This document shows, piece after piece, positions 7,541-13,384 of a stretch of DNA of 28,597 nucleotides. The notes under the pieces are model-generated. The model saw only the letters and a program-made list of their open reading frames with translations. It was not told where the DNA came from and did no database searches. Made by a program: the position numbers and the translations under genes. Source of the DNA: Nanohaloarchaea archaeon PL-Br10_U2g27 (GTDB lineage Archaea; Nanohalarchaeota; Nanosalinia; Nanosalinales; Nanosalinaceae); NCBI GenBank assembly GCA_001564035.1, contig LKMX01000001.1:1-28597 (forward strand). The letters run 5' to 3'. Every line of letters begins with the position of its first letter. Position 1 is the stretch's first letter.

Positions 7541-7852
7541 TTGGAGCCGGGAGACAGGTATCCCTTTGTTGAAAAGGGAGGAAAGTCCTGACCGCATTAT
7601 TTGGCAGTGCAGGCGCAAGGCCTGTACTCTGAAAGGAGATGGCTTTTACCGTAACCTCTAACAATTTAGAGGGTAGGGAGAGGCCTGGGTCGCAGAAACG
7701 ACACGTCCTGCGTTAAAGATGATTGCAGTATGAAATGCATGATGTTTCGCAGTTGGATCGGTGAAACGAGGCCTGATCTGTGCGGCAAGCCCTTTGAGGT
7801 GCTTAGTTGAATCCTGTCTACTAACAGAATCAGGCTTACTTACCGGCTCCAA
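7541..7852 (+). ncRNA. rnpB: RNase P RNA
   Basis: P1 TTGGAGCCGG (7541-7550)/CCGGCTCCAA (7843-7852); CR-I GAGGAAAGTCC; CR-II/III-like GCAGAAAC and GGTGAAACG; CR-V AACAGAATCAGGCTTA; P2 GACAGG/CCTGTC; 312 nt. Confidence 0.9.
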
Positions 7853-10131: not shown

Positions 10132-10132
10132 A

Positions 10133-10206
10133 TGGCCGAACCCGGATTTGAACCGGGGACAACTCCATCTTCAGTGAAGCGCTCTCCCAGGCTGAGCTAT
10201 TCGGCC
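10133..10206 (-). tRNA. tRNA-Phe (GAA)
   Basis: Acceptor GGCCGAA/TTCGGCC, anticodon arm CTTCA-CTGAAGA-TGGAG, T-arm CCCGG-TTCAAAT-CCGGG. Confidence 0.97.
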
Positions 10207-10312
10207 ATCTCTAGTAAATCAAATCTGTATCTCTAAGCTTTAATAAGTCAATGAAATTCTTGTGAAGATCGCGCGAAAGATTTTATTCCTGTCGATAACT
10301 ATACAATGGTTT

Positions 10313-11248: not shown

Positions 11249-11293
11249 ACTATTTGGTCAACTGTTTAAATGTTGTATGCTGCATCTCTTTGT

Positions 11294-12289
11294 ATGACAG
11301 ACTCTAGGGAAACCCGTGATCACGTTATACCTGGTACGGAGGAACAGCATTTGGGAGAAGAAGTAAAGGGATACGATTTCAGAGGAGAGTTTGATTTTGA
11401 AGAAATGCTGGATGCCTATCAGCACACAGGTTTCCAGGCCTCACATCTAAAAGAAGCTATAGATATAGTGAAGGAGATGAGAGAAGAGAATGCAAAGATA
11501 TTCCTTACTTTCACATCAAATATTGTTAGTTCAGGGTTAAGGGAGGCCATAGCTTATCTGGCCCGCGAGGACTTGGTTGATGTAATGATTACTACTTCGG
11601 GATCGATTACTGAAGACGTGATTAAGACTATGCATCCTTTTAAGATGGGTGAATGGGATGCTGATGAAGCAGAGCTAAGAGAACAGGGAATCAATCGTTT
11701 AGGAAATATTTACGTTGAGTCAGATGGGTATGTCAAGCTTGAATCCTGGCTTAACAATGAGTTTTTCCCAGATTTCTTCGAACAAAAAAAGATCAGGACT
11801 CCGACAGAAGTAGCTCATGAACTGGGAAAAGAAATGGATGACAAAGACTCCATCCTCAACTGGGCATCAAAACACAAAATACCGGTATTCTGCCCAGCAC
11901 TTATAGATGCAGAAATAGGAGACTACATGTTTTACTACCGGCAAGAACAGGACTCAGAAATAGGTATAGAGATACTCGACGACTGGGACAAACTGATACA
12001 TGAGGCAATTGAAGCAGAAAAGACAGGTCTGATATGTGTTGGCGATGGAGTCCCAAAGCATCAAGCAATAATGAGCAACCTTTTCAGAGGAGGAACAGAC
12101 TACGCAGTCTACATATCAACAGGGATGGAGGGCGATGGCAGTCTTTCAGGCGCTCCTCCAAAAGAAGCTGTATCATGGGGTAAAATAAAGCAAGAAGACA
12201 GAAACTATACGCAGATAGAGGCTGAAGCAACACTAGTATTTCCTATTCTTGTCGCAGCATCATTCAAAAATTTTGAGGCCTCAAAATAA
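11294..12289 (+). CDS. dys: Deoxyhypusine synthase
   Basis: GFQASHL, FTSNIVSSGLR, NRLGNI, GGVPKH-like GDGVPKH, DGSLSGA and EAVSWGK with the catalytic Lys. Confidence 0.96.
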   Translation: MTDSRETRDHVIPGTEEQHLGEEVKGYDFRGEFDFEEMLDAYQHTGFQASHLKEAIDIVKEMREENAKIFLTFTSNIVSSGLREAIAYLAREDLVDVMITTSGSITEDVIKTMHPFKMGEWDADEAELREQGINRLGNIYVESDGYVKLESWLNNEFFPDFFEQKKIRTPTEVAHELGKEMDDKDSILNWASKHKIPVFCPALIDAEIGDYMFYYRQEQDSEIGIEILDDWDKLIHEAIEAEKTGLICVGDGVPKHQAIMSNLFRGGTDYAVYISTGMEGDGSLSGAPPKEAVSWGKIKQEDRNYTQIEAEATLVFPILVAASFKNFEASK

Positions 12290-12523: not shown

Positions 12524-12588
12524 GTTCTCCAACGCTCTATACAAAAACCAAGACAAATATGGCATTCGACATGCCGGAGGAGAGAAAA

Positions 12589-12786
12589 ATGGAGTTTTCA
12601 ATTTCCAAAATGAAGGAAGTAATAAAAGCAGAGACAGACAAACGTGTCTCTAGAGAAGCAGCAGAAGAACTAAGCGCAGATTTAGAACAGCGAGGCAAAG
12701 AAATTACTCAAGAAGCATTAAAGGCTGCAGAACAAAAAGGACGCGTCACAGTCAGAGCTGAAGACATTAAGGAAGCCTTAAACTAA
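12589..12786 (+). CDS. Archaeal histone (HMf-like singlet, 65 aa)
   Basis: Histone-fold pattern MEFSISKMKEVIK...RVSREAAEEL...A...A....RVTVRAEDI; SD GGAGG at 12576-12580, 8 nt before ATG 12589 (track start 12559 is the alternative). Confidence 0.92.
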   Translation: MEFSISKMKEVIKAETDKRVSREAAEELSADLEQRGKEITQEALKAAEQKGRVTVRAEDIKEALN

Positions 12787-12904
12787 TTTTAGTCTTTTAT
12801 TTTCCTCTAGAACTTAACCATATTTCCCTCATATTTTTTCTTAATACTCTCAAAAACTCTTCAAAAAACCGCTGGTATTAAAGAACATGGGTTAAAAACT
12901 AAGA

Positions 12905-13022
12905 TGTGAGTGCCCATTGACAGAGACTTAATGTTTCTTCAATGAGGTAGCATCTGCGGAAGTAGATGCTCAGGAGGCAGTAACGGCCACCATTCATCAA
13001 GTAACCCGTACTGCTTCCCACA
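12905..13022 (+). ncRNA. Putative structured ncRNA, family unassigned
   Basis: Three long hairpins plus a terminal 4-bp stem; the G-U pairs work only on the + strand; GGAA tetraloop; upstream TATTAAAG (12876-12883) and downstream T-run (13027-13030). Confidence 0.6.
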
Positions 13023-13037
13023 CTACTTTTAACCAAA

Positions 13038-13271
13038 CTACTTGCTGAACAACGAGGCTAAAAGTATTACAGAGCCTCCGATAAACAGCGTTAACCCCTG
13101 AGCTTCTGGAGAAATAAGTATTACAGGGATATTAAACCCTAACTCTGCATCAAAAGCAATCTCGCCCTCATTAGTTATCAACGTCAATATGCCTAACAAA
13201 TCCAGAACTGAAGAAACAGCCAAACCCAAATAAAAACTAATACTTCTCATAAAGAAAAAAGATTGACTCAT
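13038..13271 (-). CDS. Small two-TM membrane protein (77 aa), unknown function
   Basis: Two hydrophobic segments with an acidic loop. Confidence 0.6.
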   Translation of the reverse strand: MSQSFFFMRSISFYLGLAVSSVLDLLGILTLITNEGEIAFDAELGFNIPVILISPEAQGLTLFIGGSVILLASLFSK

Positions 13272-13311
13272 TTATTCATAAATTTGTCGACTATTATAGG
13301 TTCTGAGAAAG

Positions 13312-13384
<73 letters not shown>

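Follow-up and report, generated by a model that had tools for sequence, protein, structure and literature searches.

Comparative analysis of a 28,597-nt stretch of DNA from Nanohaloarchaea archaeon PL-Br10_U2g27 (contig LKMX01000001.1, positions 1 to 28,597; hereafter, the window) points to a novel gene of about 125 nt encoding a structured non-coding small RNA. The predicted gene appears to be real and conserved within a narrow clade of nanohaloarchaea, and is best described as the founding member of a new RNA family and as a young, clade-restricted gene. Its sequence is retained in three lineages at a level of divergence at which neutral sites of a neighbouring gene are saturated, its helices show compensatory changes, and a putative promoter and a likely terminator flank it.

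Genomic context and boundaries of the predicted RNA gene

The genome has one copy of the element, which is bordered by a histone gene and a convergent small open reading frame (Table 1). The upstream neighbour had been identified as a histone gene in an earlier note made from the letters of the window, and a match to PF00808 bears this out. The same gene order is common to the three lineages in which the complete element was detected: deoxyhypusine synthase, histone, RNA, small open reading frame on the opposite strand, tRNA-Asn and top6A. In all three, sequence conservation sets in exactly at TGTGAG, which is also exactly the predicted transcription start, and ends at TTTTA. The spacer separating the histone gene from the element, of 118-200 nt, is not conserved among the three lineages, and cannot be aligned over its whole length between the window and its Kulunda homologue (L059, see below).

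Table 1. Features of the predicted small RNA locus (window coordinates)
Feature	Position	Strand	Remarks
Histone gene, upstream neighbour	12559-12786	+	PF00808
TATA-box-like element TATTAAAG	12876-12883	+	29 nt upstream of the first conserved base (TGTG)
Predicted small RNA gene	12905-13031	+	about 122-127 nt; 5' tail UGUGAG, three hairpins, 3' U-run
Hairpin 1 (P2)	12911-12949	+	long, bulged; lower stem invariant, apical stem and loop variable
Hairpin 2 (P3)	12950-12969	+	8-bp stem capped by a GNRA tetraloop
Hairpin 3 (P4)	12973-13018	+	10-bp stem, small internal loop, 2 more pairs, large conserved loop
Single-stranded segment CAUUCAUCAAGUA in hairpin 3 loop	12991-13003	+	13 nt, invariant in all three lineages
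U-run, likely archaeal transcription stop	13027-13030	+	TTTTA in all three lineages
Convergent small membrane-protein gene	13038-13271	-	70 aa from ATG at 13250; two hydrophobic helices

The earlier note had offered a regulatory element in the 3' region of the histone mRNA as an alternative to an independent RNA gene, and several observations speak against it. T-runs directly follow the histone stop codon in all three lineages, implying that the histone mRNA ends well before the element; the intervening spacer is unconserved, and three congeners (G001, G002 and G004), all of which carry the histone gene, lack the element in this spacer, which in G004 spans only 60 nt.

The order tRNA-Phe, deoxyhypusine synthase and histone is kept across the genus (window positions 10132-10207 and 11270-12289 for the first two genes; L035, L037 and L038). 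Other brine contigs carry closely related deoxyhypusine synthase genes (82-84% identity) followed by unannotated open reading frames on the opposite strand, mostly with a NUDIX gene. This different gene content downstream indicates that the histone linkage is specific to the genus.

The tRNA-Asn(GUU) gene beside the locus (window 13311-13384, - strand) has no intron. A 16-nt insert after the anticodon loop is present in the tRNA-Asn(GUU) genes of L059 (L059:4717-4806) and G004 (L035:3441-3530), whereas the G002 gene (L038:2995-3190) has a longer one, of about 120 nt, that contains several hairpins; ARAGORN with default settings does not call these interrupted genes. In G004, two copies of CTGAAACGCC about 55 nt apart occur in a G+C-richer stretch of the region separating the small open reading frame from tRNA-Asn (L035:3340-3440).

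Homologues and distribution

Of 70 genomes of the order, searched by BLAST and with a first covariance model (R1), one contained a first full homologue: that of Nanohaloarchaea archaeon B1-Br10_U2g21 (G003:C23:2616-2742; LKMP01000020.1, L012). This bears out the nanohaloarchaeal affiliation presumed in the earlier note. The second was reached via the contigs encoding the closest homologues of the deoxyhypusine synthase, and lies in two JGI metagenomes of Kulunda soda-lake brine, SL_6KL_011 and SL_5KL_010 (L059/L060). Covariance-model scores amounted to 131-153 bits for the window and G003 and to 119-147 bits for L059, the lower value being that of R1 on L059. The RNA was present in two of the 70 genomes of the order, G003 and that of the window (G000). 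Searches with R1 and a second model (R2) over the 70 genomes of the order and phylum yielded no further homologue, and collections of genomes, metagenomes and viruses scanned for the pattern added none. Nine further neighbourhoods of deoxyhypusine synthase genes (P0005-P0013) presented a different gene order and no element. The hosts are three closely related lineages of soda-lake and salt-lake nanohaloarchaea.

A fourth, divergent copy was detected on a contig of the probable source metagenome, which matches window positions 12950-12989 at 35 of 40 bases, continues with ...CCATCAAGGTAACCCG... and has different flanks. This copy comprises hairpin 2 and the start of hairpin 3, with the 3' part of the hairpin 3 loop segment in the loose end of the contig. 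The contigs carrying it (2064 nt in run X1 and 5005 nt in run X2) have depths of 22 and 14, versus about 7 and 5 for the contig of the window, and the sequence is hence roughly three-fold more abundant; it probably belongs to an unbinned nanohaloarchaeon living in the same lake at higher abundance.

Secondary structure

The three hairpins that the earlier note had drawn, including the GNRA loop of the second, coincide exactly with the minimum-free-energy fold. Folded by itself, the + strand of the element in the window reaches -49.5 kcal/mol, versus a mean of -27.9 kcal/mol (sd 3.7) for dinucleotide shuffles, and none of 200 shuffles folded as well (z -5.85); in the folding-energy comparison that the note had named, the structure is thus non-random. 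The corresponding z-scores for the window, G003 and L059 are -5.9, -4.4 and -6.3. The proposed four-way junction does not hold up. Its closing helix P1 (TGTG/CACA), which forms 4 bp in the computed fold, is present in the window alone, with both G003 and L059 reading CCGACUAA instead. Since P1 is not conserved, the conserved architecture is taken to be that of three tandem hairpins with a 6-nt 5' tail and no conserved closing helix.

A covariation analysis, which had also been suggested, revealed that all three hairpins are kept in the two full homologues, with compensatory changes. The apical stem of hairpin 1 has been almost entirely rewritten between lineages (AGAGAC/GUUUCU, GGAGGCC/GGCUUCC and GAAGCC/GGCUUC), with compensatory differences that preserve pairing; in the same hairpin, pair 8-47 changes from G-U to A-U. 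Hairpin 2 presents one compensatory pair (U-A to C-G) and three one-sided changes, and its loop (GGAA, GAAA and GAAA in the three lineages) conserves the GNRA consensus. Hairpin 3 contains a compensatory change from G-C to A-U, together with one-sided changes from G-U to A-U and from U-A to U-G.

The pair-cell counts were obtained on a model-fitted alignment of the three sequences, in which 97.2% of 106 pair cells are canonical; shifting the 3' partners by 1-3 columns lowers this to 35-53%. Both bases have changed in four pairs and a single base in eight. The comparison of the window with G003, on a hand-adjusted alignment, yielded five compensatory pairs, versus about 0.6 expected from randomly placed substitutions (P ~1.5e-4). 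The full set comprises three complete sequences, all of them from close kin.

Purifying selection and absence of a conserved reading frame

Over 128 nt, the RNAs of the window and L059 agree at 84% of positions; the other comparisons give identities of 79-81%. For the neighbouring deoxyhypusine synthase gene, the same pair of sequences shares 35% of four-fold degenerate sites and 47% of third codon positions. At 35% identity, four-fold sites are saturated, and conservation of the RNA against this background shows strong purifying selection. About 100 of 127 positions are invariant, including the 5' tail, the lower stem of hairpin 1, the linker and the 13-nt stretch in the loop of hairpin 3.

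No open reading frame is conserved across the RNA region in the three lineages. Open reading frames on the - strand (45 aa in the window and 53 aa in G003) were discarded as genes because 2-nt indels between the homologues break them. A 41-aa + strand open reading frame called over the RNA by JGI (L059:4194-4319) stops after about nine codons in the window and G003, and is probably spurious, given that the frame is not open in either sequence.

These data bear on the notion that the locus encodes no functional RNA, and that its palindromes arose by chance, serve protein binding at the level of DNA or are left over from a mobile element. The narrow distribution and the location in a variable spacer beside a tRNA-Asn gene would fit such an origin, which we nevertheless deem the least probable of the explanations considered here, in view of the strong purifying selection relative to saturated neutral sites, the compensatory changes in all three helices, and strand-asymmetric G-U pairs (see below) that would make no sense in DNA cruciforms. 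Furthermore, the element is a single-copy sequence lacking repeats or an att-like duplicate, and phage, plasmid and viral collections returned no match other than a chance hit in a tail-fibre gene. A mobile-element or viral origin was accordingly rejected: the seven viral pattern matches correspond to the number expected by chance, and the best of them falls within a 936-aa tail-fibre open reading frame and does not adopt the fold.

Strand of the predicted RNA

Substitutions passing between A-U and G-C pairs leave intermediate states that are informative about the transcribed strand. Between the window and G003, seven pairs have such an intermediate as G-U on the + strand, and one pair has it as G-U on the - strand. 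Counted by pair cells, ten G-U pairs of the + strand turn into A-C mismatches when read on the - strand, with a single case of the reverse. The earlier claim that each arm contains a G-U pair valid only on the + strand is upheld for the window and for G003, which folds at -50.2 (z -4.4) on the + strand versus -37.0 (z -1.9) on the opposite one; it fails for L059, where A-U predominates at these pairs and neither strand folds better than the other.

A function on the - strand was considered as an alternative. The element would then be a structured 3'UTR of the mRNA for the convergent small protein, possibly containing a box C/D-like motif (UGAUGA ... CUGA). The stop codon of that gene immediately precedes it, with no terminator in between in two lineages; T5 and T7 runs come after it on this strand in the window and G003, and good folding of the - strand is seen for the window and L059. 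Weak matches to the C/D sRNA family sR1 were also obtained on this strand in the window and G003, but they reach just 7.5-8.9 bits (E 3-9) versus a threshold of 45 bits. The bias in G-U pairs, the modest - strand z-score of G003, the missing - strand T-run in L059 and the conservation of a + strand TATA box at a fixed distance all argue against this explanation, which we regard as improbable. A box C/D sRNA proper was rejected as well: UGAUGA and CUGA are present on the - strand as one box pair, 20 nt apart, with no complementary flanks to form the stem of a kink-turn and no C'/D' pair.

Comparison with known RNA families

Searches against Rfam with a short stretch of the window produced no credible match at E<=10, and the region itself matched no known family even at this permissive threshold, in line with the earlier expectation of an unassigned RNA. 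Elsewhere in the window, Rfam models matched 23S rRNA, the 3' part of 16S rRNA, RNase P RNA and five tRNAs. No model of a known riboswitch or self-cleaving ribozyme class (Rfam 15) matched; the hits at E<=10 for the element in the window and G003 were noise (a lncRNA, miRNAs, a snoRNA and sR1). The assertion that the element is not a 5S rRNA, an SRP RNA or a tRNA, nor a known riboswitch or ribozyme, is thus borne out by the lack of a match to the respective models at the element.

Among these families, 5S rRNA required particular attention. A 5S match was found in 28 of the 31 genomes searched, 27 of them above the family cut-off and G003 included. No match was returned for the whole genome harbouring the window, despite most relatives having one; its assembly comprises 582 kb in 52 contigs and is 79% complete. 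Since the genome lacks a 5S match, the element was examined as a potential divergent 5S rRNA. Like 5S rRNA (RF00001), it is about 120 nt long, has a predicted promoter of its own and adopts a multi-helix fold. Unlike 5S rRNA, which forms a three-way junction closed by helix I, it has a layout of three tandem hairpins. This candidate was rejected, with no RF00001 match in the region at E<=10, no conservation of the closing helix and, in G003, a normal 5S gene on a different contig from the homologue of the element. The 5S gene is often found downstream of 23S rRNA; at this site, about 120 nt downstream of the 23S rRNA, the window contains the RNase P RNA gene (7542-7851).

Other families were likewise discarded. 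The archaeal SRP RNA (RF01857) of this genome maps to G000:C2:7690-7965 and that of G003 to C2:5795-6075, and hairpin 2, despite its GNRA loop, is devoid of the internal loops that characterize SRP helix 8. Neither ARAGORN nor Rfam called a tRNA at the element. An origin from tRNA-Asn or its intron was rejected too: the local similarity between the element and tRNA-Asn is not significant (score 17, versus 13.2 with sd 2.1 for shuffles; p 0.07), and a search with R1 over L038 did not match the insert in the G002 gene. An H/ACA sRNA was dismissed because the ACA following hairpin 3 is specific to the window, being part of the segment replaced by CCGACUAA in G003 and L059, and the stem of hairpin 3 encloses 26 nt, too little for a pseudouridylation pocket plus an upper stem.

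The remaining possibility in this category is a compact catalytic or ligand-binding RNA of a new type, either a ribozyme or an orphan riboswitch-like aptamer, whose fold would be held together by two contacts, one between the GNRA loop and the invariant bulged stem of hairpin 1, on which it would dock, and one formed by base pairing between the 5' tail and the hairpin 3 loop. The latter contact corresponds to the pseudoknot or switch put forward in the earlier note (GTGAGTG with CATTCAT). Complementarity between tail and loop spans 6-7 bp in all three sequences, the GNRA loop is conserved and the proportion of invariant positions exceeds what structure alone would demand. The pairing itself, however, is no better than expected: at -6.2 kcal/mol it lies within the distribution for shuffled loops (mean -4.5, sd 1.9; 11% reach -7.0 kcal/mol or lower), and it shows no covariation. 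In L059 the seventh pair is lost through a change of G8 to A, and P2 is kept instead. Moreover, the fourth, divergent copy lacks the CAUU part of the supposed pseudoknot partner, no Rfam ribozyme or riboswitch model matches at E<=10, and in the window no + strand gene lies downstream of the element for a riboswitch to control. The pseudoknot can hence be formed but is not supported by these data, and a catalytic or ligand-binding role seems quite improbable, slightly more so than a role on the - strand.

Promoter and terminator signals

The TATA-like box and the downstream T-run described in the earlier note are both present (Table 1), and comparison lends them weight. The box TATTAAAG is found in identical form and at the same distance of 29 nt in L059, and as TTTAAAAAAG at 30 nt in G003, with the sequence between box and start differing among the three lineages. 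It resembles the boxes located upstream of tRNA genes in the window, such as that of tRNA-Phe (TTATTAAAG), and we infer that it functions as a promoter. Termination is likely to occur at the conserved U-run; a second TTTT follows 2 nt further on in G003 and L059. Taken together, covariation, purifying selection, a TATA box at a fixed distance and a T-run provide comparative support for the earlier proposal of an independently transcribed novel non-coding RNA, with transcription being deduced from these signals.

The convergent small membrane-protein gene and a putative antisense role

In the window, 7 nt separate the stop codon of the convergent gene from the 3' end of the RNA; in G003 and L059 the gap is 24-28 nt. 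The three lineages share 60-61% identity in the encoded protein. Identity by codon position, at 0.63-0.68 (first), 0.79 (second) and 0.34-0.38 (third), indicates that the open reading frame is a real gene. A profile search over 5.8 billion proteins recovered the protein in these three lineages only, with no Pfam family and no useful Atlas lead. RNA and small-protein gene hence co-occur strictly in the three full lineages, where a gene for a small hydrophobic protein and a small RNA on the opposite strand are adjacent, an arrangement seen in type I toxin-antitoxin systems.

Any function assigned to the RNA is a guess at this stage. The one we favour, tentatively, is that, provided the RNA is real, it acts as an antisense partner of the 3' end of the small-protein mRNA. 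The RNA would be transcribed from its own TATA-box promoter and end at the U-run. The small-protein mRNA would read through the RNA gene, since two of the three lineages have no U-run to end it after the stop codon and ahead of that gene (no T-run of at least four in the window and L059; a T4 run in G003), and its 3'UTR would then carry the full complement of the small RNA. Base pairing between the two transcripts could in turn alter the stability or yield of the mRNA for the 70-aa protein. Both the transcript overlap and any regulatory effect are projected from the gene arrangement.

This antisense function draws on the convergent placement of the small-protein gene in all three lineages and on the restriction of the protein to them. 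Some bacterial type I toxin-antitoxin pairs have this geometry, with antisense control through overlapping 3' ends, and an archaeal precedent is provided by Methanosarcina mazei, in which small-protein genes are paired with antisense RNAs. The co-occurrence is nevertheless weak evidence, because the three full sequences come from close kin that share everything, and it may reflect common descent. Further observations fit poorly. G004 encodes a two-helix small protein in the same place (21% identical and possibly unrelated) without the RNA, and no small-protein homologue was detected on record for the fourth, divergent copy. The T4 run in G003 could stop the small-protein mRNA before it reaches the RNA gene, L059 folds equally well on both strands, and a 70-aa protein with two helices exceeds typical type I toxins in size. 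Lastly, the 13 loop bases and the 5' tail are invariant, which a cis-antisense RNA would not need, and which points to a target in trans or to a protein partner.

The last observation is central to a different explanation, which we consider nearly as likely as the antisense one: a structured RNA that acts in trans or is bound by a protein and has no functional tie to its neighbours. The invariant 5' UGUGAGU, the UCA linker and the loop CAUUCAUCAAGUA would bind a protein or pair with a distant RNA, with the hairpins and the GNRA loop serving as a scaffold. Loop and tail are unchanged at saturated neutral divergence while the helices covary, the GNRA loop stays GNRA, and hairpin 1 has a lower stem of unvarying sequence, as sites of protein or tertiary contact do. 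The fourth variant, in turn, keeps CAUCAAG.UAACC, the 3' part of the hairpin 3 loop segment, but apparently not the small protein. A search for targets did not reinforce this explanation. The best genome-wide duplex of the loop (-27.5 kcal/mol) falls in a coding region and many others have similar energies, matches to the loop complement in G000 and G003 are about as frequent as those to a reversed control pattern, and pairing with the 5' region of the small-protein mRNA is not significant, all three results being within chance. A distribution limited to three lineages and two of 70 genomes of the order would also be unusually narrow for the RNA of a core ribonucleoprotein. On balance, antisense control of the small-protein mRNA is retained as the most likely of the proposed functions.

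Implications and comparison with known systems

The non-coding RNAs of DPANN archaea are, to our knowledge, almost unexplored, and their cells not yet genetically tractable. A candidate small RNA that combines purifying selection, covariation and a recognisable promoter offers a concrete and testable case, as well as a first look at the promoter and terminator signals of nanohaloarchaeal small RNA genes. Its presence in three lineages limits its general importance. If the link to the small membrane protein were true, it would define an RNA-controlled small-protein module in an ultra-small symbiont. We consider it unlikely, though less so than a - strand function, that the locus will turn out to be a module of the type I toxin-antitoxin or small-protein/antisense-RNA kind in a DPANN archaeon, or else a clade-restricted catalytic or ligand-binding RNA.

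The predicted pair resembles type I toxin-antitoxin pairs in the convergent arrangement of a gene for a small hydrophobic protein and a structured small RNA, whose 3' ends would overlap, and in its inheritance as one lineage-specific module. Typical type I toxins have fewer than 60 aa and one helix. The pair described here differs in its archaeal host, in the 70 aa and two helices of its protein, and in being a module known from sequence alone. We know of no established type I toxin-antitoxin system in the Archaea, and neither protein nor RNA has any sequence relation to a known family.

Closer in phylogenetic terms are the small-protein/antisense-RNA pairs of Methanosarcina mazei, which are proposed to modulate growth under salt stress (bioRxiv 10.1101/2025.10.28.685009). 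These pairs likewise combine an archaeal small-protein gene with a cis-encoded antisense RNA, as proposed here; they belong to a different phylum, the overlap in the present case would involve the 3'UTR only, and the likeness is one of arrangement.

Lastly, metatranscriptomic analysis of Atacama halite communities has reported intergenic small RNAs in a hypersaline setting, including a nanohaloarchaeal one of 266 nt (Gelsinger et al. 2020, PMC7002113). Judged by its description, that RNA is comparable to the one predicted here in being intergenic, nanohaloarchaeal, of conserved predicted structure and outside any Rfam family; it differs in its greater length and in having been seen in transcripts, the present RNA being known from its sequence.
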